The notes below the pieces were generated by a model. It saw only the letters and a program-made list of their open reading frames with translations. It did not search any database and had not been told where the DNA came from. This document shows positions 42,685 to 58,309 of a stretch of DNA of 64,000 bases, piece after piece (position 1 is the first letter of the stretch; each line of letters opens with the position of its first letter). A program made the translations under genes and the position numbers. Location of the stretch: NCBI GenBank assembly GCA_963664875.1, contig OY761611.1, forward strand, positions 320,001-384,000, written 5' to 3'. Origin of the DNA: Candidatus Kapaibacterium sp. (lineage in GTDB: Bacteria; Bacteroidota; Ignavibacteria; Kapaibacteriales; UBA2268).

Positions 42685-43293
42685 ATGAAAATTGGTATAT
42701 ATGGGGGAAGTTTTAATCCCATTCATAATGCACATATTCAAATGGCAAAATGTTTTTCAGAGCAAATGAAGCTCGACAAATGCATTTTTGTTCCTAATCG
42801 AATTTCTCCATTCAAAACAGAAGAAAATGTCATAGAATCGATATTTCGCCTTGAAATGGTAAATATTGCAGTAGAAGGATTTGATAAGTTTGAAGTCTCA
42901 GATTTTGAACTAACCAATTCGCAGGAAATATCATATACATACTTGACTCTTGAACATTATAGAAATATTTTCCCGAATGATGAGCTGTTTTTGCTAATCG
43001 GATTAGATAATGCTGTTAATTTTGACAAATGGAAAAATTGGGAGCTTATACTCAATTATGTTTCTCTTTGTATAGTTGATAGACCGGAGATAGCAGACAA
43101 GGAAGGGAAAGAGAAAATAATAAAGGCTCTCTCAAATAAATCGAAAGAGCCTCATTGGGTCAGTGCACCACTAATGGAGATTTCATCATCTATAATACGC
43201 TCTAAAGTTGCAAAAGGTTTCAAAATAAATGAGCTTGTTCCAAAAAAAGTTGAAGAATATATTTACAAGCATAATTTATATTCTAATATTTAG
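42685..43293 (+). CDS. nadD: nicotinate-nucleotide adenylyltransferase
   Basis: GGSFNPIHNAH, SPFK, SYTYLTL, ISSSIIR. Confidence 0.94.
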   Translation: MKIGIYGGSFNPIHNAHIQMAKCFSEQMKLDKCIFVPNRISPFKTEENVIESIFRLEMVNIAVEGFDKFEVSDFELTNSQEISYTYLTLEHYRNIFPNDELFLLIGLDNAVNFDKWKNWELILNYVSLCIVDRPEIADKEGKEKIIKALSNKSKEPHWVSAPLMEISSSIIRSKVAKGFKINELVPKKVEEYIYKHNLYSNI

Positions 43294-44197
43294 AAACATT
43301 GTAGTCCGCAAGACCGCCTTCAATATTGATAATTATTACAGCCGTGCCGGAATTATCAGATTTGGAGTAGTAATAATTACCTTTATCTTCAAACCCGTCA
43401 AAATTGAAAGAACTCAATGCAGAATTTGTAAATATTTTACAATTTGATTCTTTTGGAATGCTAATATTTATATCTGAGACTCCGCTTTTGATATTTACTG
43501 TACAAGAATCAGACTGATTACCTAACACCAAATCAAAATCAGAAGCTCCCATGTTTAGGTTTAATGTTTTGACTGGAATATTTTTCAAATCAAAATCAGC
43601 ATCACTTGCACCAATGTTAAAATGCAAATCCCATTCTGTTTTATTATCCAACAAAATTTTGGCTTCGTTCGTAAAATTCAAATCTTTTAACTCTGTAACC
43701 TGGTCATAAGAAAAGTCAATAACCAGAGCAGAATCACTATTCACTGAGCTATTGCATTTAGAAGATTCAGTATAGGTTTTTGCTTTGAAGTACTTATTTT
43801 CAGAATCGAAATCTGTTATTTCAAATGAGCCTGCTCCACCATTAAAGTTGAGTATTGCTTTCGAAATATCGGAATGCTTTTCAACAGAATAATAACTCTC
43901 AGTATTTACAGAAGATAATTTGTGTTCGACTTTTTCGGAAATTTCCTCGACAGCAGAAACACCTGAAGAGAAAATACGCATTACTATGAGTGCAAGGAAA
44001 ACAGCAGAAAATGATGCTAAAATTCTTTTCCACATCTCAGAGATGCTAAGCATAGAAATGCCAAATATTATCAAAAGTGCCGGCCAAAATAAGTTTGAGG
44101 ATATATTAGAAAAATCTACAAATCCAAAATTTGATAAAAGGACTGAGATGCCTAAACTAATAAAAAATACACCCCAAAAAAGAGAAGAGGTTTTCAT
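43283..44197 (-). CDS. LiaF/DUF5668-like membrane anchor with beta-repeat (toast-rack-like) extracytoplasmic domain
   Basis: FWGVFFISLG..LL, WPALLIIFG TM motif; repeated GASDxD beta units; downstream of pspC. Confidence 0.68.
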   Translation of the reverse strand: MKTSSLFWGVFFISLGISVLLSNFGFVDFSNISSNLFWPALLIIFGISMLSISEMWKRILASFSAVFLALIVMRIFSSGVSAVEEISEKVEHKLSSVNTESYYSVEKHSDISKAILNFNGGAGSFEITDFDSENKYFKAKTYTESSKCNSSVNSDSALVIDFSYDQVTELKDLNFTNEAKILLDNKTEWDLHFNIGASDADFDLKNIPVKTLNLNMGASDFDLVLGNQSDSCTVNIKSGVSDINISIPKESNCKIFTNSALSSFNFDGFEDKGNYYYSKSDNSGTAVIIINIEGGLADYNVSKY

Positions 44198-44589
44198 ATA
44201 TTTCGTTCCCCAATTTGATTTTCAGATTTGATGTTCTTATACAGTAGAGCTGTTCCCAGACCAAGAAGGATTAGTGCAAAATAAATTTGTGAATCGATAT
44301 CAGGAATTATATAGTCCAACAAAAACAAAACTCCTAAAGAAATGAGAATATACGCTAAAACATTTCTTGAATTGCGTGGAGTGCCTGAAATAACTTCTCT
44401 TCTGACTACAACTCCGTAATCAGCTACAATCCATAACAAAATATATGCAATTATGCCTAAACCACCTGTAAATACTGCAAGAATGAACACTATTCTCACG
44501 AGGACTACATCAATATTGAAATAGTCGGACAATCCGGAACAGACACCGGCAATCATTCTTTTCGGTCTGTTTCTAAAAAAACGTTCCAT
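44194..44589 (-). CDS. pspC: PspC domain membrane protein
   Basis: RMIAGVCSGLSDYFNID..LVR, AYILLWI. Confidence 0.85.
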   Translation of the reverse strand: MERFFRNRPKRMIAGVCSGLSDYFNIDVVLVRIVFILAVFTGGLGIIAYILLWIVADYGVVVRREVISGTPRNSRNVLAYILISLGVLFLLDYIIPDIDSQIYFALILLGLGTALLYKNIKSENQIGERNI

Positions 44590-44623
44590 TTTTTTGCCTC
44601 CAATAAGTAAGTTTAATAGTATA

Positions 44624-44648
44624 TACGGTATTATTGGAGTGGGGTTAC
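44624..44648 (-). promoter_or_regulatory. ECF sigma-factor promoter upstream of pspC
   Basis: Minus strand GTAAC-N16-CGTA, the typical AAC/CGT ECF layout. Confidence 0.55.
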
Positions 44649-44652
44649 TGAC

Positions 44653-47600
44653 TTATTTCAAAAATTTTACCATTGCACCATAATTTTTATCAACCTTAAA
44701 CCCAATTTTTTTAAGGAAATCTTGAATTTCGAAGTGCGTTTTTACAACTTCTATATCTTTTTGTTTCAGTCTCTCAAAAAATACTTCAAGCATACTGCTT
44801 CCAAGTCCTAAACCTTTTAGTTCCTGTACTATAACAGTACCGTCAAGAAATACAGTGTTTTTATCTATCTCTTTGAAGCTCAAACCACCAACTAATCTAT
44901 CATACTTGTCTTGCATCACATAGTATCTGTATCCTTCTCCGTATTTCATCGTGTAGTTTTCTTTATGGAATAATCTATAAAGTAAACCTATTTCAGAAGG
45001 TTTGAAAGTTTCATAAATGAAGTAATTATTCTTACCTGCATCTACAATTTTTGTCTTTATAGTATTGCCAAATATATTATCAGTATAGTCATAAGCTAAC
45101 TGTTTTGGTATCAATTGATAAGGAAATACCATTTTACTAAATACTAATTTGTCGTTTTTGTTAGTAAGATTAAATTGTAAGTCTGATAATTCATTTAGCT
45201 CTGTGACATCTGTATAATCTCTTAAGTCTATAATTTTCAACAGCCTGTCAAAGGCATTTCTTATTTCGATAGAATGATTTCGAAAATATGTGTGCCTGAA
45301 GAAGTAGTATCTATTGTAATCAGAAACCTGATTAAGTTCATATTTGTCAAAAAATGTAAAAATAGTATCTATAGTTGCTTCAGGGGTAGCTGCATCATTA
45401 AGGAATTGCCAGTTAATAAAATTGTCAATTGCATTTGATAATATCATTGGAATAAAGCACTTAGGATAATCTTTAAGATACTTTTTCAATTCGTAGAGTA
45501 ACTGATTTCTGCCATCAACAAAATCATATTTTTGAAAATCTGATTCAAGTTCTTTTAAGAAGTTAAGTCCCTCTTTTTCGCCTAATACTTCCATAATGGA
45601 ATCAAAAATCCAATTCAAATCGAGGTGACCGGAAATCCAAGAATAATGAGATATAGTCTTTTTATAGAAATTTTTATAAAATGGCAAAATCAGAGAAATA
45701 GGAGAAGAGTAATAGACCCAGCCGTTTAGCGATAGCAGTCTGCCGGCATCCATATAGTCTTTATTGGGTAATATTACATTAGACATTGAAATGAACCCCG
45801 GAATTATTTTTTTTCCGCTATTTCTCCAGCCCATCAAAATAGATTTCATTGAGTACACAAATATTTTTTGTAATTGTGATAAATCCGCCTTCTTGTCAGC
45901 AGATAAAATCTCATTAGACAAAATTCTGATATGTCCCCAAGCTGTCAACTCATCATGGTAAATAACTGATCTTATACTCAATTCAGGGCGGGCACAACCT
46001 AATTTTGGCAAGACTTTAGAACCATAAGGATAAGACGAGATTATCATCAGCCAAAAAACTGTTTCCAGATTCCTACGCGATTTTAAATTTTCGTTGATAA
46101 CTAATTGAAAATCAAAACGTTCTCCATTTTTAGTATTGACACACATCCTAAAAATATTATTCTCGTGTGTGTGTGTTATATTTGAAATCCATATACCATA
46201 CTCAGTTAAATCATCAAGACAAAATTCATGCTTATCAAAAGCAAGCATTACTGATTGCTTCAAAAAAGTCGTAGTTGTCAAAATAGAAAACAGCTGAGAT
46301 TTTGCTTTTTCGGGAACTCCATCGTCAAATGTAATTTTCTTTTTCCACTCATTTTTATCTTCTACTCGGAAAGCATTTTGGATTTTTTTCTCATAGTATT
46401 CCGAAACTTCAATAAAGTACTTATGAGCTATTTCAGATATTTTCTCATCGTCATCATGCATCATCCAATTTACCAATTCACTTCTGACCGGTTCGTAATA
46501 GTGTCCATATTTTTTTACAAATTGCACAAGCAACCTGAAAATATTCTCAAACTGTTTCACTAAAAGTCTATTTACCGGCCATTTGAGTTGAGTTCGATAA
46601 ATAAATAGCCTTTGTCTTAGGGTTTCTAATCTCCTTTTTTCAAATTTATGAGAGGTAATTTTAGCAATATATTCTTCATTGAGGAATGAAAAACCGGATT
46701 CCAAAAACGTGAAATACCCCGATGAGTGAAATGCGAAAGCATCATGAGTTAACAAAATCATATATGCTCGACACCTTATGTTTTCAATAGGGTGATACGC
46801 AAGTGATTCTAACCTAAGCTTGATGAGTTCTATTAAGTTAGAGTCTGTATTGCTTATTAGTAGCTCAATATTAGTAAGAGCAGTCTGATTGTCATTAGAT
46901 TTATCTGCAACAATCAAAGAATAATTTGCAATCAGCTCAGCAAGACCGGGAGATTTGAAGTTTTCGCTACTTGACTTACTGCTGTTTGATATAAGAGGTA
47001 GTTTTACTCTTTTATGGAAATATTTTAAATCAACTTCCCAAATTTCTTTGACAGGAGAAAAGTCTCGAAAAGGCTGATTCCCAGCCCAAAGCAATGGTTG
47101 TTTAGCAAGTATATCAAAATCTAAATTATTTGTTTCATGCGTGTAAATCAGATTTCCGATTTGATAACAATTTTCATCTGTTTTTCTGCAAATCAGCTCT
47201 CTGTTATTTACTCTGTCGTATATTGAGTTTTGACGTATGAGTATATCACTTTCTAAAATTCCGAGATCTCTGTAAAACCATCTTGGTATTCTTATATAAA
47301 AGCCCTGCATCTTAAGATCAACAAAGTTTCGTTCATAACATGAATCTATAAGTGATTGATAATTCTTTAGAATAAGCTTTCTATTTAAAGTCTGCTTGGC
47401 AGTAATTTCTCCATTCTTTGCGTTAAAATCTTGTTCAAGTATTTTGAAATTGACTATTCGCTCATATTTTGCAAGTGATTTATTAGCTACCATAATCAAC
47501 TTATGACAGTAGTCATGCAAATCTGATTTGGAGAGTCCGATTATTAGCTCGTCTTTAAAATCAGGAACAATAAAAAGAATATTATAAGGTTTTCCGTCGC

Positions 47601-49194
47601 CTACGAGAAACACTCTTTTGATGCCGGGCACACCTTCGAACTTGCTTTCTACATTTCTCGGAGCAACAGTTTGTCCTTTGTTGTTTTTATAAATATCTTT
47701 TACTCTGTCGATAATTTGGAAATGTCCTAATTTATCCTTGACAAAGATGTCACCAGTAGCAATATGGTAGTCATTTTCATTATTTTGAGGATACTCTATG
47801 ACAGATTCAGGAGGAGCATCTTCCAAATATTTCGCCACATAATGTCCGGATATTGACATTTCGCCATTATCTGCAAGTTTCGGATAAATACCGGGAAGAG
47901 CTATTCCTGTAGAGTTTGCTACGTATTCGCCGGGAGGAGTCATTGTAATTCCACCCGTGGCTTCGGTCATTCCAAATCCGCTGGATAGTTTAATATTATA
48001 TTTATTGAAAAACTTAAATACTTTTGGATCTAAATACCCGGCTGCAGATAGTCCCCATTTCAATTTTTTTCCAAGTACATTGCTTATTGCTTCTTCCGGA
48101 GCAATTCTATGTTTGTCCATCATTAACATTATGTTGTCATAAGCTTGCTGCCAACGCAAAGGAATACTTATGAATATTGTCGGGTTTACAGTTGGGAATA
48201 ATTTGAATAGAGTAGAGCCTGAAGGCGAACCTGTAAATGTATAAGTACCATTCCAATAGATGGTTCCCAAAAGTTCCAAATATCTGCCGAAAGTATGGAA
48301 TAACGGCAAGTATGAGAGCATCACTTCTTTATCACCGATAAAGGGAACAGAAGCACCTCTGGCAAATCTTTTAGAGACAAGGGAATAATTGCTGAAAGAG
48401 ATACCTTTGGGCTGACCGGTTGAGCCGGAAGTGAACATAACTGTTGACACTTCATTTGTATTGATAGATTCATATTTACTTATGCATTCTTCTATTTCAT
48501 CAAGTGTAAGTTCTGAAGTAGCAACAGATAAATTGAGACAATTAAATAGTTCAACGTTGGAAAAAACTTTTGTAGTAAATATTTCAAGATTATTATTAAT
48601 ATCTTTTCTCAACTCATCAAGTAGTTTCAGTCTTTCTAATTTGTCAGTTACGGCTATATCAATTTGAAGCGTTTTAAAGATAGAGAGCAATTCGGATTTT
48701 GACGAATTTATATTGATGGGAGTAACAAAGATTCCATGCATCAGGCAACTTAGATCAGTTAGGGCAGAGTACACACCATTATCACAAAATATTGCTACTC
48801 GTGGTCTTTTGCTTTTTTGTAAAAGTGCAGCGGCTATAGATCTGGTTAAATCATAAACTCTTTCATAAGAAAATTTTTGAGAAGGAGTAGCCCCCATATC
48901 CCTAAACAGAATAGCATCCTTATTTCTATATAAACGTTGCTTAAACATATCAAGCAACGAATAATTAGATTTTTGTATTAGTTCGAAAGCACGTTCAGCC
49001 AATAAATATCTATCTTCTATATTTTGAACGTATTTAAGAAATGTTACACGAAATACTAAATCGAGCAATTCAAAGATTATATCAGCATCTTTGCCATGAT
49101 ATTCGAAATAGAATCGTTTTATAGTTTCGAAATGTTTTTTTAAATAACCATCGTAGTTTTTTGCTTCTTTCAAAATATCTCTAATGTCAGGCAT
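44653..49194 (-). CDS. 1513-aa multidomain protein: AMP-forming long-chain acyl-CoA-synthetase-like domain, helical region, kinase-like fold, C-terminal GNAT
   Basis: FTSGSTGQPKG, YLPLFH, GFGMTE, TGD, IIDRVKD; C-terminal V..ELKGLGLGS..L and FLKKIGF GNAT motifs. Confidence 0.85.
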   Translation of the reverse strand: MPDIRDILKEAKNYDGYLKKHFETIKRFYFEYHGKDADIIFELLDLVFRVTFLKYVQNIEDRYLLAERAFELIQKSNYSLLDMFKQRLYRNKDAILFRDMGATPSQKFSYERVYDLTRSIAAALLQKSKRPRVAIFCDNGVYSALTDLSCLMHGIFVTPININSSKSELLSIFKTLQIDIAVTDKLERLKLLDELRKDINNNLEIFTTKVFSNVELFNCLNLSVATSELTLDEIEECISKYESINTNEVSTVMFTSGSTGQPKGISFSNYSLVSKRFARGASVPFIGDKEVMLSYLPLFHTFGRYLELLGTIYWNGTYTFTGSPSGSTLFKLFPTVNPTIFISIPLRWQQAYDNIMLMMDKHRIAPEEAISNVLGKKLKWGLSAAGYLDPKVFKFFNKYNIKLSSGFGMTEATGGITMTPPGEYVANSTGIALPGIYPKLADNGEMSISGHYVAKYLEDAPPESVIEYPQNNENDYHIATGDIFVKDKLGHFQIIDRVKDIYKNNKGQTVAPRNVESKFEGVPGIKRVFLVGDGKPYNILFIVPDFKDELIIGLSKSDLHDYCHKLIMVANKSLAKYERIVNFKILEQDFNAKNGEITAKQTLNRKLILKNYQSLIDSCYERNFVDLKMQGFYIRIPRWFYRDLGILESDILIRQNSIYDRVNNRELICRKTDENCYQIGNLIYTHETNNLDFDILAKQPLLWAGNQPFRDFSPVKEIWEVDLKYFHKRVKLPLISNSSKSSSENFKSPGLAELIANYSLIVADKSNDNQTALTNIELLISNTDSNLIELIKLRLESLAYHPIENIRCRAYMILLTHDAFAFHSSGYFTFLESGFSFLNEEYIAKITSHKFEKRRLETLRQRLFIYRTQLKWPVNRLLVKQFENIFRLLVQFVKKYGHYYEPVRSELVNWMMHDDDEKISEIAHKYFIEVSEYYEKKIQNAFRVEDKNEWKKKITFDDGVPEKAKSQLFSILTTTTFLKQSVMLAFDKHEFCLDDLTEYGIWISNITHTHENNIFRMCVNTKNGERFDFQLVINENLKSRRNLETVFWLMIISSYPYGSKVLPKLGCARPELSIRSVIYHDELTAWGHIRILSNEILSADKKADLSQLQKIFVYSMKSILMGWRNSGKKIIPGFISMSNVILPNKDYMDAGRLLSLNGWVYYSSPISLILPFYKNFYKKTISHYSWISGHLDLNWIFDSIMEVLGEKEGLNFLKELESDFQKYDFVDGRNQLLYELKKYLKDYPKCFIPMILSNAIDNFINWQFLNDAATPEATIDTIFTFFDKYELNQVSDYNRYYFFRHTYFRNHSIEIRNAFDRLLKIIDLRDYTDVTELNELSDLQFNLTNKNDKLVFSKMVFPYQLIPKQLAYDYTDNIFGNTIKTKIVDAGKNNYFIYETFKPSEIGLLYRLFHKENYTMKYGEGYRYYVMQDKYDRLVGGLSFKEIDKNTVFLDGTVIVQELKGLGLGSSMLEVFFERLKQKDIEVVKTHFEIQDFLKKIGFKVDKNYGAMVKFLK

Positions 49195-49343
49195 AAAAAA
49201 TTCCTATGGTAGTTAGGAAATAAATACTTAGATTATAATCGAGAAAAATGTCTCGATATAATTTACTAAGCAGTGTAAACTCTTATTGTAGATACTTATT
49301 TAGCCAGATAATATTGCTAAACAGTTTTACGATTGCAATATAA

Positions 49344-49351
49344 CAAAGCTA
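49344..49351 (-). promoter_or_regulatory. possible Bacteroidota-type -7 element (TAGCTTTG) for the 1513-aa gene
   Basis: CAAAGCTA on + strand, about 150 nt upstream of the ATG. Confidence 0.4.
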
Positions 49352-49461
49352 TTAAATATCATAAATAATAAAATAAAGACTTTTCTAATATCTCGCAAAC
49401 ACAGAAATTAAAAATGTCCTTATGGGCAATAAATAAAAATCATAAAAATAAAGGTAATGTT

Positions 49462-50724
49462 ATGCAAATTTCCGGATTGAGATACGGCTCTCGTTTGCTA
49501 AATCTGGTTGAATTTCCATACGCAGATTTTCTTACCGGTAGTTCTACTAAAGAAGAAATTCAATCTATGCTCGACAAAAACGGTAAGGTTGTTATCAAAC
49601 CTCAGTTTTCAGGTGGAGTAGGCAAAAAAGGTAAAGCCGGTCTTGTAAAAATAGTTGATAACATTCATGATGCTTTCAGAGCAAAAGAGCAACTTTACTT
49701 TGCTGAACATACACACGGAAATAAAACTATAAGAGCAAATGGCGTAACTTTCGAAGAGTTTATCCCTTCGGAAGTTGAGTTATATTTTTCAATAACTAAT
49801 TCCACTATAGAGAGAAAGCCAATTTTCACAATCACACCGAATGGTGGTGTTGATATAGAAGATTTGCCGGCAGAAAAGAAAAACGTTACTTGGATAGATC
49901 CTCTTATTGGTATCAAATCTTTTGATATTACAAATGCTCTAAATGATTTGAACTGTCCTTTGGAATTTATTTCTCCTTTGGTACAATATCTACCAAAATT
50001 ATGGGATTTGTACAGCAATTATGGTGTATCTACACTTGAAATAAATCCTATAAGAATGAAAAGGGTCGGATCCTCATATGTTCCTGTTGCGTGCGACCTC
50101 AAAGTTGCATTCGATCAAGATAGCCCTGATTGGAAACGCGTCGAACTTCCAATGTCAATTTTTCAATCAGAAACTACTGAATTCGAATCTGAAATCAATA
50201 AATTGAGAACATATCAAGGGCAGAGCGACGTTGTTGAGCTTAATGCCAATGGTTCTATTATTCCGTTTATGTTTGGTGGTGGTGCTAACTCCGCTGCTAC
50301 TGAAACTTTAGGCAGCCGTGCAATTTTCGCTTCAGATTTTGGTGGCAACCCACCTTATGAAAAAATGTATGAAATATCTAAAATCGTCTTCAAGCACTGG
50401 TTAGACAAAGCTAACACACTTTTGCTAATCGGAGGGAAGGCAAACAACACTGATATTTATGTAACATTCAAAGGCATTTTTGATGCACTCAGAGACCATA
50501 TTGCAGAGCATGGCAATAAGCCAATTTACACTGTAATTGGAAGAGGTGGTCCAAACCTTATACAAGGTATGTATTACGGTAAAGATATTTTAGATACTAT
50601 GAAATTGCCTTATAAAATGTTCGGGTTTGATTCTTCTATGATACAGACTTTAGAATATGCCAAACGTATTGACGAATGGTGGGGCAAAGAAGGCAAGGCA
50701 GATTACATAAAAAAACATATGTAA
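49462..50724 (+). CDS. aclB: ATP-citrate lyase beta subunit-like (ATP-grasp plus citrate-binding domain)
   Basis: VVIKP..GGVGKKGKAGLV, GGVDIE, LEINP, FGGGANS, FGGNPP, GGKANNT, GRGGPN; start at ATG 49462. Confidence 0.78.
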   Translation: MQISGLRYGSRLLNLVEFPYADFLTGSSTKEEIQSMLDKNGKVVIKPQFSGGVGKKGKAGLVKIVDNIHDAFRAKEQLYFAEHTHGNKTIRANGVTFEEFIPSEVELYFSITNSTIERKPIFTITPNGGVDIEDLPAEKKNVTWIDPLIGIKSFDITNALNDLNCPLEFISPLVQYLPKLWDLYSNYGVSTLEINPIRMKRVGSSYVPVACDLKVAFDQDSPDWKRVELPMSIFQSETTEFESEINKLRTYQGQSDVVELNANGSIIPFMFGGGANSAATETLGSRAIFASDFGGNPPYEKMYEISKIVFKHWLDKANTLLLIGGKANNTDIYVTFKGIFDALRDHIAEHGNKPIYTVIGRGGPNLIQGMYYGKDILDTMKLPYKMFGFDSSMIQTLEYAKRIDEWWGKEGKADYIKKHM

Positions 50725-53581: not shown

Positions 53582-54895
53582 TTATCTTTTTATTCTGATT
53601 GCTTTTACCGGCCAATCTACATTCTCATCTGTAACTTCATATATTTCAATGACTCCTTTGTCTTTCAAAATATTTACAAGAGCATAAGTTGGACCTGTTG
53701 CATAACCTTTGTTAGCCAAAATTCTGGTAACAAATGATCTGAGACCAAGATATTGGAAATTATCACTATTAGCTGTAATAGTTTCAGACTTATCCAATTC
53801 TTTTAACAATTGTTCTTCAGTGATAATCCTGTCGCCTTCGTTGCTGTCGTCGTTCATAGACTGATTAAGATTGATTTTGCCTAATACTTTCAATCCTATA
53901 CGAGATTCTGTATTCAATTCACCTAATTTAAAATCAGAACCTTCGAAAGCCTCTATCGTTGCTTCTCGTATAGCTTCCTGTTCTGTTATGCTAAATCTAA
54001 ATTCGTCGATTCCTGACTCAGCATTGCTGATAATCAGCATTAAATCATGGTGGAGTTCTTCTGCAGTTCTTAGTTCGTCAATAGAAAAATAGATATTATG
54101 AGCAACTTTATTTCTAATAGAGAATAATTCCCGCCATTTTTTTTCAAATTGCTTATCCTGAAATGCTGTTTTGAAAAACTTATTATAGTTTGTTTGCAAA
54201 TCATTTTTCAATTTGAATAAGTCTTCCGGGGAGGAAGCAAGCATTATTTTATTTACTATGCTCTCTTGCTTATTAAATCCTGCTACATGTTTGTAAATAA
54301 CTTCTCCTAAGTCATTAAAATCTATGAGAGAAACATCTAAATCAACAAATCCGGAAAAGAGATTTTCGTTTTCTTTTCTAACTTTAATTTTATCAATGAG
54401 TTGCTTAGGAAAGTTAGTGTTCCACCAATTAACTCCGATTTTGAGGGTAAAAAATTTGACTATATATCTTCTCAGAGCATTTTCAACTTCATTTACAAGT
54501 GGGTAAATATCAACGGCAATTTTTGCAGAAACATCGTCTTTTAAAATTTTCAAATTAGAGAAAGATAGTTTTGCTTTTAAATGTTTTATTAGCTTAAATC
54601 TAAATTTTTCCAATTGCTCAAAGTTTGAGCTCCAAACATTTAGTAAAAAAGCTGAGTCAATCAAATCATTTAATGTATTGCTTGTATCAACGGATTGTAT
54701 AATCACATCAATTCCGGTCCCTTTGTCGTGAATTCTAAACTGTTTTTTTGCATAATTAGATTGATCTTCGGGTGTTTCCCATAAAGATTCCATAAATAAA
54801 AGACCGTGTACCATGGAGCTCTCAGTTGAAATTTCAGCATTACCATATTTATCAATTGCCAGAATTTCAAAGTTTAAAGGGATGTCGTTATTCAT
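53582..54895 (-). CDS. HEPN-domain protein (Swt1/Abi2-like), putative RNase
   Basis: YPLVNEVENALRRYI helix, NWW, IDFNDLGEVI, RNKVAH (Rx4H). Confidence 0.72.
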   Translation of the reverse strand: MNNDIPLNFEILAIDKYGNAEISTESSMVHGLLFMESLWETPEDQSNYAKKQFRIHDKGTGIDVIIQSVDTSNTLNDLIDSAFLLNVWSSNFEQLEKFRFKLIKHLKAKLSFSNLKILKDDVSAKIAVDIYPLVNEVENALRRYIVKFFTLKIGVNWWNTNFPKQLIDKIKVRKENENLFSGFVDLDVSLIDFNDLGEVIYKHVAGFNKQESIVNKIMLASSPEDLFKLKNDLQTNYNKFFKTAFQDKQFEKKWRELFSIRNKVAHNIYFSIDELRTAEELHHDLMLIISNAESGIDEFRFSITEQEAIREATIEAFEGSDFKLGELNTESRIGLKVLGKINLNQSMNDDSNEGDRIITEEQLLKELDKSETITANSDNFQYLGLRSFVTRILANKGYATGPTYALVNILKDKGVIEIYEVTDENVDWPVKAIRIKR

Positions 54896-55087: not shown

Positions 55088-58000
55088 ATGCGCAATAGAT
55101 ACTTTATATCACTTTTGTTATTTTTTCTAAGCAGTATATATGCATACAGTAAAGAAGCAGATACATTATCCGGTAGTCAGAGCAAAGAAATAATTGAAGA
55201 GCACATTATATCTAACCCCAAAAGTATTATTCAGGAAGTATTGCGAAATACTGAATCAGTAGAATCATTATCTCTGCAAAAAAAAATTATTCTTGCAAAA
55301 GCCTTTTATTATAACAATCAAAACTCACAATCCAAAAGACTTTTAAAAAACATCTTAGATTCCAGTAGTGTTGGTAATCCTGTAAATTTAGAAGCTAAAC
55401 ACTTCCTAGCAAGTGTATTTTATCGAGAAAATGATCTAAAAAATGCTCTCAAGTTTGCTTTAGAGTCAAAGGATAAAATAACCAATGAGAATATGAAAGC
55501 AGAGTCAAATAATACTCTCGGTTGTATCTATTATCAGCTTAAAGACTATAATTCGGCATTAGAATATTTTAAAGCAGCAGCTCTTATTCAAAAGCAGAAA
55601 AATGATTTCAAAGGTTTGTCTATCACTTACAATAATATGGGTTCTTTGTATTATGAAATAGAGAACTACTCAAAAGCGATTGAATTCTTAGACTATGCTT
55701 ATTTACTAAAAACTAAATATGCAAATTTAGAAGATTTGATATCTACTGTCAATAATCTGATTGTGGTTTATAGAGATGCCGGCTTGTCTGAAAAAGCCTT
55801 CGAGTATCAAAATAAACTTATAGATTTGAAAGACTCTCTTTTTACTCAAAGACAGTCCAAAAAAAAAGAGATGATGCAGTCAGTCATAGACAGCACCACA
55901 ACTTTGATATCCGAAGCTATGCAACAAATGCAAAAATTGGAATCGGAAAAAAAAGAATCTCTTCAGCAGGCTCTTAAACACAAAGAAAAGTCTGAAATCA
56001 ACGAATCCGCTTTAGAAGATTTAGAATTAGACTATATACTAAATCTTCAGCAGATGAAAGACAAAGAAATTGAGCTCCTCAAACAAGATAATCAAATCAA
56101 GGAATTAGCTTTAACTCAGCAACAAGATTCAATATTGCTACAATCAAAAGCTAATCGATTATTGATGATGGAAAATCAGAAAAAGCAATTGGAGCTGATG
56201 AATCAAAAAAATATTATAACTTTAGCAGATAAAGAAAGAAAACTGATGGAACAGCAGAAGGCAGCTAAAGAAAGATATATGCTATTGCTTATTTTAGGTC
56301 TATTATCATTCGGATTGATTGCTTTGGTTCTTTACACAAAGTTTAAACACAATCAGAAGATAAACAAACTTCTTGGTGAAAAGAACTACGAATTATCTGA
56401 AACGAATAAAAAGCTAAAAGAATCGCAATATTTTTTGAAAGAAAGCAATACAAGGTTTTCAACCATTTTTCACAGTAGCCCAATACCTTCAACTCTAACA
56501 GTATTTCCTTCAGGATTGTTTCTTGACGCAAATCAAGCATTTTTAAACCTGTTTTCTATAGATAGATCTGATTTGGAAGGAGTATCTCTTAAAGACGTTC
56601 CTCTTTGGGAAAATCCATTACAAAGAGAAGAGCTTATTGCTACATTGAGCAACCGAAAGAAAGTAGAAGGCGTTGAAATGGATTTGAAGGATTTGAAAGG
56701 GAATGTATTACATACTCTTGTTTTTTCAGAAGTTATTGAAATAAACAATGCTCCTCGAATTCTTACTGTTATCCAAAACATAACTGATAGAAAAAAAGCT
56801 GAACACGCTTTGCAATCTGCAAAAGAAGCTGCAGACTCGGCAAACAGACTGAAGTCAGAATTTTTAGCAAATATGTCACACGAAATCAGAACCCCTATGA
56901 ATTCGATTCTTGGGTTTAGTGATTTGTTGAAAAACAGAATTACTACTCCGCAAGAAAAGGAATATGCTGAAGCTATCATCTCTTCCGGGAAAAATTTATT
57001 GGTATTGATAAATGATATACTTGATTTGTCAAAAATTGAAGCAGGACGCTTAGAACTCATATATGATTCTACAAACTTAAAAGAACTTGGCAACGAAATT
57101 AAACAGTTGTTTTCTATAAAATGCCTTCAAAAAGACATTGATTTCAGTTACAATTATAACTCAGAACTTCCTGAAAGTTTCATACTTGACGAAACTCGTG
57201 TAAGACAGGTTTTAGTAAATTTGGTTGGCAATGCTGTTAAATTTACTTCCACAGGCGGCGTGTATTTGAATATTTCAGGAGAATATGCTATACAGAAAGG
57301 CAGAATGAATTTAATTGTTTCTGTGAAAGATACAGGAATAGGCATTCCTAAAGAACAGCAAAATCAAGTTTTTGAAGCATTTCATCAACAAAAAGGTCAG
57401 TCCAACAGAATATTTGGTGGTACGGGACTTGGCTTGTCGATTTCTAAAAAACTTATTGAAATGATGGGTGGGAAAATATCGTTGATTTCGGAAGAGCAGT
57501 CCGGATCAGAGTTTATTTTTACGATTCCAAATGTAGAAATATCAAAAGTAGTCCAAAGAAAATCTAATTCTTTTGAAGACTTTCCTTTTGCTAATTATCA
57601 ATTTGAAGATCAATCAATATTGGTCGTTGATGATAATGAACTAAACCGAATTCTACTCAAAGAGTATGTTCGAGATACCGGCTTGATTGTATATGAAGCT
57701 GGGAATGGTGATGATGCAATCAAAATGACTGCTAAAATGAATCCAAATTTAGTGCTCATGGATTTGAAAATGCCAATAATTGACGGTTTCGATGCCACGA
57801 AAACAATCAAAAGAGATGAAAATATTAAGCATATTCCAATAGTGGCTCTTACAGCTTCGGCAATGAAAAGTGATGAGATGAAGATTTCTGAAACAGGATT
57901 TGATGATTATCTGCGTAAACCTGTGAATAAAAATGACTTATATAAAGTGCTTTTAGCATTTCTTAAGTACAAAGAGCTCGAATCTGACAACACTAATGAA

Positions 58001-58309
58001 TTTGAAGTAGAAAATGTTCAAAATCTCGAAGAAATTGGCAATGATGCTTTAAGTGGATTGATTAACGAACTGGAACTAAAGCATTTAGCTAATGCAGAAA
58101 GGTTAAGTAAAGTGCTGAAGATAGGTGCTGTTCAAGAATTTGCAGATGAACTAAGTCAATTAGCTGAAAAATATCAGGCACAGTTTTTAAATATTTTTGC
58201 TGAAGATTTGAAACATAGGGCAAATACACTTGATCTATTGGGCATTAGAGAAAAGTTAGCAGAGTTGCCAGAAATTAGCGGTAAACTGAAAGAGCAAATA
58301 TCAGGCTAA
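55088..58309 (+). CDS. hybrid sensor kinase: TPR, coiled coil, TM, PAS, HisKA, HATPase, REC, HPt-like tail
   Basis: FLANMSHEIRTP, NAVKFT, DTGIG, GGTGLGL, VVDD, LMDLKMP, LRKP. Confidence 0.92.
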   Translation: MRNRYFISLLLFFLSSIYAYSKEADTLSGSQSKEIIEEHIISNPKSIIQEVLRNTESVESLSLQKKIILAKAFYYNNQNSQSKRLLKNILDSSSVGNPVNLEAKHFLASVFYRENDLKNALKFALESKDKITNENMKAESNNTLGCIYYQLKDYNSALEYFKAAALIQKQKNDFKGLSITYNNMGSLYYEIENYSKAIEFLDYAYLLKTKYANLEDLISTVNNLIVVYRDAGLSEKAFEYQNKLIDLKDSLFTQRQSKKKEMMQSVIDSTTTLISEAMQQMQKLESEKKESLQQALKHKEKSEINESALEDLELDYILNLQQMKDKEIELLKQDNQIKELALTQQQDSILLQSKANRLLMMENQKKQLELMNQKNIITLADKERKLMEQQKAAKERYMLLLILGLLSFGLIALVLYTKFKHNQKINKLLGEKNYELSETNKKLKESQYFLKESNTRFSTIFHSSPIPSTLTVFPSGLFLDANQAFLNLFSIDRSDLEGVSLKDVPLWENPLQREELIATLSNRKKVEGVEMDLKDLKGNVLHTLVFSEVIEINNAPRILTVIQNITDRKKAEHALQSAKEAADSANRLKSEFLANMSHEIRTPMNSILGFSDLLKNRITTPQEKEYAEAIISSGKNLLVLINDILDLSKIEAGRLELIYDSTNLKELGNEIKQLFSIKCLQKDIDFSYNYNSELPESFILDETRVRQVLVNLVGNAVKFTSTGGVYLNISGEYAIQKGRMNLIVSVKDTGIGIPKEQQNQVFEAFHQQKGQSNRIFGGTGLGLSISKKLIEMMGGKISLISEEQSGSEFIFTIPNVEISKVVQRKSNSFEDFPFANYQFEDQSILVVDDNELNRILLKEYVRDTGLIVYEAGNGDDAIKMTAKMNPNLVLMDLKMPIIDGFDATKTIKRDENIKHIPIVALTASAMKSDEMKISETGFDDYLRKPVNKNDLYKVLLAFLKYKELESDNTNEFEVENVQNLEEIGNDALSGLINELELKHLANAERLSKVLKIGAVQEFADELSQLAEKYQAQFLNIFAEDLKHRANTLDLLGIREKLAELPEISGKLKEQISG

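Follow-up and report, generated by a model that had tools for sequence, protein, structure and literature searches.

Among the acyltransferases of bacteria the large Pat-type enzymes, such as Pat, PatZ/YfiQ and the PatA of S. lividans, are single chains in which a GNAT domain is fused to a domain related to acyl-CoA synthetases, and they act on enzymes of central metabolism; that large domain is of the NDP-forming kind and is catalytically inactive (PMC8556138, as far as the available part of this review goes). The same part of the review lists five GNAT types, and none of them as described there carries an AMP-forming synthetase or a kinase-like domain (PMC8556138). GNATs are known to acetylate AMP-forming synthetases (PMC11255334; PMC8556138, both in their available parts), and in the AcsA-AcuA and Pat-Acs pairs the GNAT and the synthetase, which is acetate-specific, are two separate proteins with no scaffold between them. 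Here we consider a gene of 1513 codons in a stretch of 64,000 nucleotides from Candidatus Kapaibacterium sp. (assembly GCA_963664875.1, contig OY761611.1, positions 320,001 to 384,000), called the window below, which joins in one chain an AMP-forming adenylation domain with its motifs kept, a long middle region that includes a kinase-like fold, and a C-terminal GNAT. An earlier note on this DNA, made from the letters alone, knew of no characterised protein with this architecture, and none turned up in the available part of the review (PMC8556138) or in a full-text literature search for a paper on it, subscription journals being outside the coverage of that search. The reading that we favour, tentatively and with a chance of being right that falls somewhat short of even, is that the protein is an enzyme under control of the repressor Rex, producing an acyl-CoA and then transferring its acyl group to a protein of the acetyl-CoA/citrate node.

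Domain make-up of the chain

The frame is without internal stops and the gene is present once in the complete one-contig genome of 3.83 Mb. The stretch from 43283 to 50724 was recovered on single contigs, with zero differences, from two DNA runs of two studies, either of which is possibly the assembly's own source. Pfam recognises AMP-binding (PF00501) at residues 87-446 (E 3e-43, 148.4 bits against a cut-off of 29.9), AMP-binding_C_3 (PF23562) at 506-622 (E 3e-12, 47.3 bits against 20.8) and Acetyltransf_1 (PF00583) at 1419-1499 (23.3 bits against 20.7), with zero matches for residues 623-1418. The earlier note had called the synthetase and the GNAT and had left about 750 residues between them without annotation, and it was right on each count, no sequence family being matched by the middle. 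The strings it had quoted are likewise all in place, namely FTSGSTGQPKG at residue 254, GFGMTE at 406, TGD at 480 and IIDRVKD at 494 for the adenylation domain, WFYRDLG at 639, LWAGN at 702 and RLESLAYHP at 794 for the middle, and LKGLGLGS at 1459 and FLKKIGF at 1493 for the GNAT. Its view that this is not a nonribosomal peptide synthetase also holds up, since Pfam finds neither carrier nor condensation domains and no G.DS or HH...DG string occurs anywhere in the protein; to judge from its letters the chain appears not to be of a carrier-dependent adenylating type. An NDP-forming acyl-CoA-synthetase-like domain is absent from the Pfam matches at E up to 1, and so the protein, although its workings seem most like those of Pat, is best classed as a variant of the large multidomain GNAT acyltransferases. 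It departs from the Pat enzymes further in its kinase-like and helical-repeat modules, which they lack.

The AMP-binding match over its gathering score, the C-terminal subdomain and the core catalytic motifs together place the N-terminal domain in the ANL superfamily. Its nearest relations among NCBIfam models (residues 80-622) are long-chain-type ligases, such as FadD11 and the ACSL type, and the adenylation domains of carboxylic acid reductases, a likeness that extends to the AMP-binding_C_3 end. In contrast to those ligases it scores far below every curated cut-off, so that the named long-chain equivalogs are not reached (116.7 against 950 for FadD11, NF038343; 115.3 against 476 for NF004837), and the best sequence matches in the PDB are luciferases, carboxylic acid reductases and MenE at E 5e-17 to 2e-15. 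Conservation was read from an alignment of 71 sequences, the window protein and its relatives from 70 loci, with L044 left out. In the phosphate loop the residues T, S, G, S, G and K are identical in 71/71, as are GFGMTE (its M in 70/71), TGD and DRxKD; in the last motif region K600 and R605 are found in 71/71 and K606 in 68/71. Such complete retention of the catalytic motifs favours a working enzyme over a degenerate sensor, and the domain most likely uses ATP to join a free carboxylic acid to CoA, giving an acyl-CoA.

The C-terminal domain has the family model over its cut-off, the GNAT fold and the acyl-CoA loop, and so belongs to the GNATs. The pyrophosphate loop of GNATs is given as R/Q-x-x-G-x-G/A in the available part of the acetyltransferase review (PMC8556138). 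In the present family the loop is retained with the consensus G-R-G-I-G-S-A, and as K-G-L-G-L-G at residues 1460-1465 of the window protein. By fold the closest structures are E. coli YhbS (4rs2_B, Z 16.5, root-mean-square deviation (rmsd) 1.9, 132 residues aligned) and the Gcn5/PCAF cores (Z 16.1-16.4, with 1qst at 16.4; rmsd 1.8-1.9, 123-124 aligned), but identity to these is 14%, the match is one of fold only, and the window protein has no bromodomain or other partner modules. N-acetylglutamate synthases match as well (5yge Z 15.1, 2r8v Z 14.5), with the protein acetyltransferases Gcn5, PCAF, NatD and Naa80 scoring equal to or above them, and so does the GNAT of the S. lividans PAT in its complex with an acetyl-CoA synthetase domain (4u5y, Z 13.7). 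This last match recalls the AcsA-AcuA and Pat-Acs pairs, which also bring together an AMP-forming synthetase and a GNAT; in contrast to them the window has one chain and an adenylation domain of another subfamily. Most likely the GNAT, tethered by its flexible linker, uses an acyl-CoA, probably the one made by the adenylation domain of its own chain, to N-acylate a target.

The same features allow the two ends to be related in another way, in which the chain is a self-regulating synthetase whose GNAT acetylates a lysine of its own adenylation domain, in the way that Pat and AcuA act on acetyl-CoA synthetase, or in which the adenylation domain is a Pat-like sensor of acid or AMP that gates the GNAT. 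The precedent of GNATs that acetylate AMP-forming synthetases (PMC11255334; PMC8556138, in their available parts), the 4u5y complex among the fold matches, the conservation of K600 and K606, two lysines of the last adenylation motif, and the placing of the GNAT on a flexible linker all suit such an arrangement. A pure sensor would however not need catalytic motifs that are invariant in 71/71, and self-regulation leaves the scaffold of 750 residues and the recurrent placement of the gene at the citrate node (see below) unexplained, and we regard this alternative as unlikely. Of the two mechanisms put forward in the earlier note, an acyl-CoA made by the chain and handed to its own GNAT would fit the invariant adenylation motifs, and an adenylation domain that only senses is harder to square with the retention of every one of those motifs.

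Between the two ends the structure had to be taken from predicted models. A search of the PDB with residues 620-1513 by phmmer returned small GNATs only, and a protein atlas gave no usable match for residues 620-990. A model of residues 620-1513 (894 residues, from a 63-row alignment; predicted local distance difference test (pLDDT) 85.2, predicted template modelling score (pTM) 0.75) lays out a beta-rich domain, an alpha-helical repeat, a part with alpha/beta structure and helices from about 996 to 1359, a linker of 18 residues and the GNAT, the outer limits of these parts being given in Table 1. With this model Foldseek reported a weak likeness to the helical and kinase parts of Vps34/PI3K (E 9e-5 to 1e-3, template modelling score (TM) 0.17-0.32, rmsd 14-17), further weak matches to RNase L, AMPK and RIO kinases, and GNATs; a fold search independent of Foldseek was filled by GNAT matches and so was uninformative on the beta and helical domains. 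When residues 985-1366 were modelled on their own (71 sequences, the window and 70 loci, with L044 dropped for its odd coordinates; pLDDT 90.9, pTM 0.87), Vps34/PI3K was no longer among the listed matches and all 50 of the 50 matches listed by the fold search (VIA) were protein-kinase-like folds, spanning residues 7-264 of the model only. Bud32 leads these (4ww5_A, Z 13.8, rmsd 3.9, 206 aligned; 8k20_B, Z 13.5), followed by an aminoglycoside kinase (4pdy), a homoserine kinase (2ppq) and YihE (1zyl), each at Z 11.8, then by the kinase domain of a lanthipeptide synthetase (7wj6, Z 11.7), Rio1 (1zp9, Z 11.6) and WaaP (6dfl, Z 11.1), and Foldseek concurs with a TM of 0.68-0.69 on target for Bud32. 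Searches on the predicted model thus assign a two-lobed kinase fold, with about 180-206 residues aligned at Z 11.6-13.8 to Bud32, RIO1/2, the aminoglycoside and homoserine kinases and YihE. In contrast to all of these the window domain has no family match, lacks the lysine and the catalytic aspartate, and carries about 110 residues of extra helices.

Active kinases are marked by a GxGxxG loop, the VAIK lysine of strand 3, the HRD aspartate, a catalytic-loop asparagine and the DFG aspartate. Positions for these were read by secondary-structure register. In the conservation table of the 71 sequences no glycine-rich loop is seen between strands 1 and 2, strand 3 (domain residues 42-49) has no lysine, and the position of the catalytic aspartate (domain residue 150, five before an invariant asparagine) is filled by alanine, serine or phenylalanine (A27/S11/F6) with no aspartate. 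What is kept is R1016 (70/71), N1139 (70/71), D1146 (69/71) and a P-G pair at 1132-1133 (71/71); N1139, domain residue 155, fits the kinase asparagine, and D1146, domain residue 162, falls in the loop between strands 7 and 8 and not after strand 8. The length of the region is 380-387 residues in all 71 loci. Pfam gave no consistent family over the 71 kinase-region sequences and their profile found chance-level matches only in the PDB. DUF6206, which the atlas suggested for residues 985-1366 with a score of 0.95, was set aside, its model missing this genome and hhalign giving a probability of 0.1% against a single DUF6206 protein. The domain is well supported, but not proven, as a sequence-orphan pseudokinase on the strength of the model. 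The pseudokinase in the earlier note's title is supported by the fold searches, though it was not to be seen in the sequence, where neither Pfam nor the PDB gives a match.

Probably the beta domain, the helical repeat and the kinase-shaped domain serve as scaffold, substrate dock or nucleotide sensor. That the kinase-shaped domain is instead a third active site, hydrolysing ATP in the manner of Bud32 and RIO or transferring an adenylyl or other group, is suggested by the Bud32 and RIO-type folds as best matches, by the near-invariance of R1016, N1139 and D1146 and by the fixed length of the domain; against it the glycine loop, strand-3 lysine and catalytic-loop aspartate are not present by register and zero sequence match to any kinase family was found, and it seems to us very unlikely.

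The fusion itself is a fixed one. Of 8000 candidates scored in a word-indexed protein search, 1292 reached E <= 0.001, and 119 of the 120 listed relatives are 1505-1575 residues long with 96-100% of the query covered, the remaining one being the window protein itself from a later start (1362 residues, 100% identity). Identities among those listed are 40-43%, apart from two close relatives at 75%. A scan of one genome per species gave 598 candidate stretches, 497 of which encode a relative, and the best 80 of these 497 are the loci counted throughout. A stop-to-stop frame of at least 1500 codons is present in 71 of the 80; eight of the other nine are cut by a contig end, and L066 has 1190 codons with ample flank. 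The kinase-like profile, run against 1.84 billion representatives, matched 300 proteins at E <= 0.001 and 151 at <= 1e-30. Among the 150 of them listed, every protein of about 1300 residues or more has the kinase-like domain near its C-terminal end, followed where present by a tail of GNAT length, and none of the listed matches shows the domain in a clearly different architecture. Shorter matches to this profile (20 inspected) all start within conserved regions of the full-length protein, seven of them without a start methionine, and so they are read as fragments cut by contigs and not as split forms. The earlier note had allowed that homologues might exist only as separate synthetase and GNAT genes, as with an assembly chimera or a recent fusion; homologues are full-length fusions.

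Carriers bear the labels Kapabacteria, Ignavibacteria, Zixibacteria, Bacteroidales (including Draconibacterium and Prolixibacteraceae), Fibrobacteraceae, Gemmatimonadota, Calditrichota, Acidobacteriota and Krumholzibacteriia, with a few proteobacterial ones. One such label or its binning is doubtful, the protein of L022 (labelled Alphaproteobacteria) being near-identical to that of L028 (Bacteroidales), with end branches of 0.008 and 0.012 and the same neighbours. Within the phylum the distribution is patchy: 14 of 301 genomes of at least 90% completeness have the gene, in 13 of 144 genera, and none of the six other genomes of the window's own family does.

Company at the citrate node

Blind clustering of 595 neighbouring open reading frames from the 80 loci, with the largest clusters named by Pfam, gave as its three largest clusters isocitrate dehydrogenase (21 loci), aconitase (17) and citrate synthase (17), and at least one of these three is found in 27 of the 80. 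The isocitrate dehydrogenase gene lies directly downstream on the same strand in 18 of its 21 loci, with gaps of 25-204 bp, and aconitase directly upstream and divergent in 16 of 17, with gaps of 69-182 bp. On a FastTree phylogeny of 72 full-length rows, whose support values are local only and in which L044 sits on a very long branch and L060 is absent, the block in which citrate synthase and aconitase diverge from the gene and its isocitrate dehydrogenase forms one clade of 21 Bacteroidales-type rows. Elsewhere the order differs: citrate synthase is the divergent gene immediately upstream in L005 and L015, in L041 it precedes the gene on the same strand, and in L059 and L060 it lies downstream and convergent. 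The pairs L005/L015 and L041/L059 fall in two other clades with local support of 99-100. In a second subfamily at about 28% identity, from 12 genomes, the gene follows a citrate synthase homologue on the same strand in 10 of 12 loci; Pfam confirms this homologue in the two loci checked (E 1e-97 and 8e-99), and the gap is 125 bp in L085. Before that citrate synthase, in L085 (2555-5541) and L082 (985-3887), stand two squalene/phytoene-synthase genes and an amine-oxidase-type flavoprotein, which look like a set for squalene synthesis.

In the window the upstream divergent neighbour is a pair of genes like those of ATP-citrate lyase, which also adjoins the gene in L001 and L002. Overall the gene adjoins citrate synthase, aconitase, isocitrate dehydrogenase or ATP-citrate lyase in at least five clades, in as many arrangements. 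This genomic link, like the Rex-type site described below, had escaped the earlier note. The AclA-like protein of the window, at 907 residues, looks unusually long for an alpha subunit of ATP-citrate lyase, and some 350 residues between its CoA-ligase part and its lyase-like end match no family.

Citrate synthase, aconitase and isocitrate dehydrogenase together yield 2-oxoglutarate, the precursor of glutamate, and this company would also suit a small-molecule product, with the acid activated and the GNAT transferring the acyl group from CoA to a small amine, for example a cycle-derived amino acid such as glutamate or aspartate, to give an N-acyl compound. In its favour, both catalytic ends seem intact, the fold matches of the GNAT include N-acetylglutamate synthases, the neighbouring enzymes lead to 2-oxoglutarate, and transporter genes adjoin the gene in some loci (L014, L009 and L016). 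Set against this, Gcn5, PCAF, NatD and Naa80 score as high or higher as folds, a large helical and kinase-shaped scaffold is more typical of machines that bind proteins, and neither the clustering nor the sampled neighbours produced a conserved pathway partner gene, so that a small-molecule product strikes us as improbable. Of the transporter genes named, the one in L014 (4514-6028, +; Zixibacteria) encodes a DASS/citrate-transporter-type carrier and precedes the giant gene by 107 bp on the same strand, and those in L009 and L016 encode MFS carriers. In L062 (5547-6035, +; Draconibacterium-labelled) the giant gene is preceded at 64 bp, again on the same strand, by a separate small GNAT gene.

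The remaining neighbours in the window (PspC-domain and LiaF-like genes, DXS, a cytidylyltransferase and an OmpA-like gene) are kept in just two of the 80 loci, those of the relatives at 75% identity, and so they are not read as partners. A promoter-like site at 44664-44693 on the minus strand, with 10 of 12 matches and an extended TG, falls within the final codons of the giant gene, shortly before the PspC gene, so that the PspC and LiaF-like pair may have its own promoter. One wastewater metatranscriptome contained a small share of the sequence, in five contigs (95-99% alike) on the PspC and LiaF-like genes and aclB and none on the gene itself, which tells neither of its expression nor of its silence. 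Further along the window, 53582-54895 on the minus strand encodes a Swt1-like HEPN protein of 437 residues, adjoining a hybrid histidine kinase of 1073 residues with TPR, PAS and receiver parts at 55088-58309 on the plus strand.

Table 1. Features of the giant gene and its surroundings, in window coordinates
Feature	Position	Strand	Basis or remark
LiaF/DUF4097-like gene	43283-44197	-	Downstream, same strand
PspC-domain gene	44194-44589	-	Downstream of the giant gene, same strand
Whole giant gene	44653-49194	-	1513 codons and stop, ATG start (open reading frame list, translation)
GNAT acyltransferase domain, residues ~1381-1513	44656-45054	-	Pfam; closest folds YhbS, Gcn5/PCAF
Low-confidence linker, residues ~1360-1377 (18 residues)	45064-45117	-	pLDDT <50, model residues 741-758
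Helical extension of kinase-like domain, residues ~1249-1359	45118-45450	-	Model; outside the fold matches
Protein-kinase-like fold, residues ~991-1248	45451-46224	-	Model, fold searches, conservation
Alpha-helical repeat, residues ~749-989	46228-46950	-	Helices in model
Beta-rich domain, residues ~624-731	47002-47325	-	Model; carries the invariant PRWF(Y/F)RDLG block
AMP-forming adenylation (ANL) domain, residues 87-622	47329-48936	-	Pfam, NCBIfam, motifs
N-terminal extension, residues 1-86	48937-49194	-	No family match, moderately conserved
Candidate Rex operator	49238-49257		20-bp palindrome, 7-bp arms, A/T-rich centre; 44 nt upstream of the ATG of the gene, ~157 nt upstream of aclB
AclB-like gene	49414-50724	+	Divergent; ATP-grasp and citrate-binding domain
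AclA-like gene, 907 aa	50767-53490	+	Divergent; CoA-ligase part 21-301, citryl-CoA-lyase-like end 650-897

A palindrome shared with isocitrate dehydrogenase and rex

Alignment of the divergent intergenic region of 219 bp with those of two relatives brought out a conserved palindrome of 20 bp (Table 1). Exact copies in the genome number two, with zero copies at one mismatch and about 0.01 exact copies expected by chance as estimated from base composition, and the second copy lies 106 nt upstream of a gene for monomeric NADP-isocitrate dehydrogenase (PF03971, E 0; TIGR00178, 1199 bits against 950). In the relative G302 the only two sites with at most one mismatch are again those upstream of the gene and of isocitrate dehydrogenase, and in G301 the sole site at that stringency is upstream of isocitrate dehydrogenase, with the site of the gene itself at two mismatches. 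Sites with two mismatches number 15 in the genome. The 300 bp before rex (recognised by NF003994 at 275 bits, cut-off 130) contain three of them, which with a three-mismatch site between two of the three make an array of four that recurs in both relatives. Within that array (G000:C1:934383-934678; L098:384-678) three palindromes overlap at an exact spacing of 14 bp just before the start codon. Another copy with two mismatches, at G000:C1:3783860-3783879 (L099), stands 27 nt upstream of a gene of the sodium:neurotransmitter-symporter family and could be a further Rex target.

The Rex operator published as TTGTGAAWWWWTTCACAA (PMC6018154, in its available part) has the same 7-4-7 layout as the palindrome, with 5/7 half-site letters in common. 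The site shared by the gene, isocitrate dehydrogenase and rex, taken with this likeness to the operator, predicts that these three, possibly with aclBA, belong to a small Rex regulon. In this organism Rex, a repressor that senses NADH, appears to govern both the gene and monomeric isocitrate dehydrogenase. What stands out is only the two exact copies of the palindrome and their places.

A proposed function and its weighing

If both ends work as their conservation suggests, the protein would be one cytoplasmic chain whose non-catalytic scaffold carries two working catalytic ends. At the N-terminus the adenylation domain would turn a free acid into its acyl-CoA and the C-terminal GNAT would spend that acyl-CoA on an amine, most plausibly a lysine or the N-terminus of an enzyme of the citrate node, for which citrate synthase, ATP-citrate lyase, aconitase and isocitrate dehydrogenase are the candidates; the centre, with its beta, helical and kinase-shaped parts, would act as a dock or a sensor. 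A more specific form of this proposal, which we hold to be doubtful, makes the chain a writer that works with acyl-CoA produced on site, taking an acid to an acyl-CoA and so to an acylated citrate synthase, ATP-citrate lyase or isocitrate dehydrogenase, with flow into the citrate cycle set in this way, the kinase-shaped domain reading the adenylate or substrate state and Rex switching the whole.

Several observations weigh against a function at the citrate node under Rex. The largest of the citrate-cycle arrangements, being that of a single clade, counts as one event. In 53 of the 80 loci the flanks examined hold no citrate-cycle gene, and 20 same-strand neighbours sampled from those 53 are heterogeneous, including a DASS/citrate-type carrier, a lipoate-protein ligase, MFS carriers, a small GNAT and a histidine kinase. 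The patchy distribution means that the family cannot be a core part of the citrate cycle. As to the palindrome, its counts at one, two and three mismatches are 0, 15 and 93 against 2, 25 and 204 for a reversed control under the same prefilter, which is no enrichment; a Rex-like site upstream of the gene in other lineages was found in one of 70 loci, that of the close relative L002, and the three genomes with the palindrome pairing are close kin. Gcn5-like pockets usually accept short acyl groups and the adenylation domain is nearest to long-chain ligases, so that the two ends are not an obvious match for a hand-over.

Much of this would also be expected if the context were coincidental, the protein being a fatty-acid ligase of accessory function whose acetyltransferase tail is unrelated and which has nothing to do with citrate metabolism: the 53 loci without a citrate-cycle neighbour, the patchy distribution and the palindrome count that does not exceed its control are all in keeping with it. 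Yet coincidence has to account for at least five clades with different arrangements beside enzymes of the citrate node, and for the sole other exact palindrome in 3.83 Mb lying upstream of isocitrate dehydrogenase, with the pairing repeated in two relatives, and we give it a slim chance. The reading of a Rex-controlled enzyme that acylates a protein at the citrate node, tentative as it is, takes in the domains and their conservation together with the gene neighbourhoods and the shared palindrome.

Should the more specific form, with acyl-CoA produced on site, be right, the protein would be a prokaryotic counterpart of the coupling in eukaryotic nuclei between acetyl-CoA-making enzymes and histone acetyltransferases. 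A conserved chain of some 1500 residues that couples acyl-CoA synthesis to acyl transfer would add a new layer of control over central carbon metabolism, in Bacteroidota-related phyla and in others that have been little studied. The kinase-shaped domain would add a new sequence-orphan family of pseudokinases, and the predicted Rex site would give a testable handle on when the gene is used.

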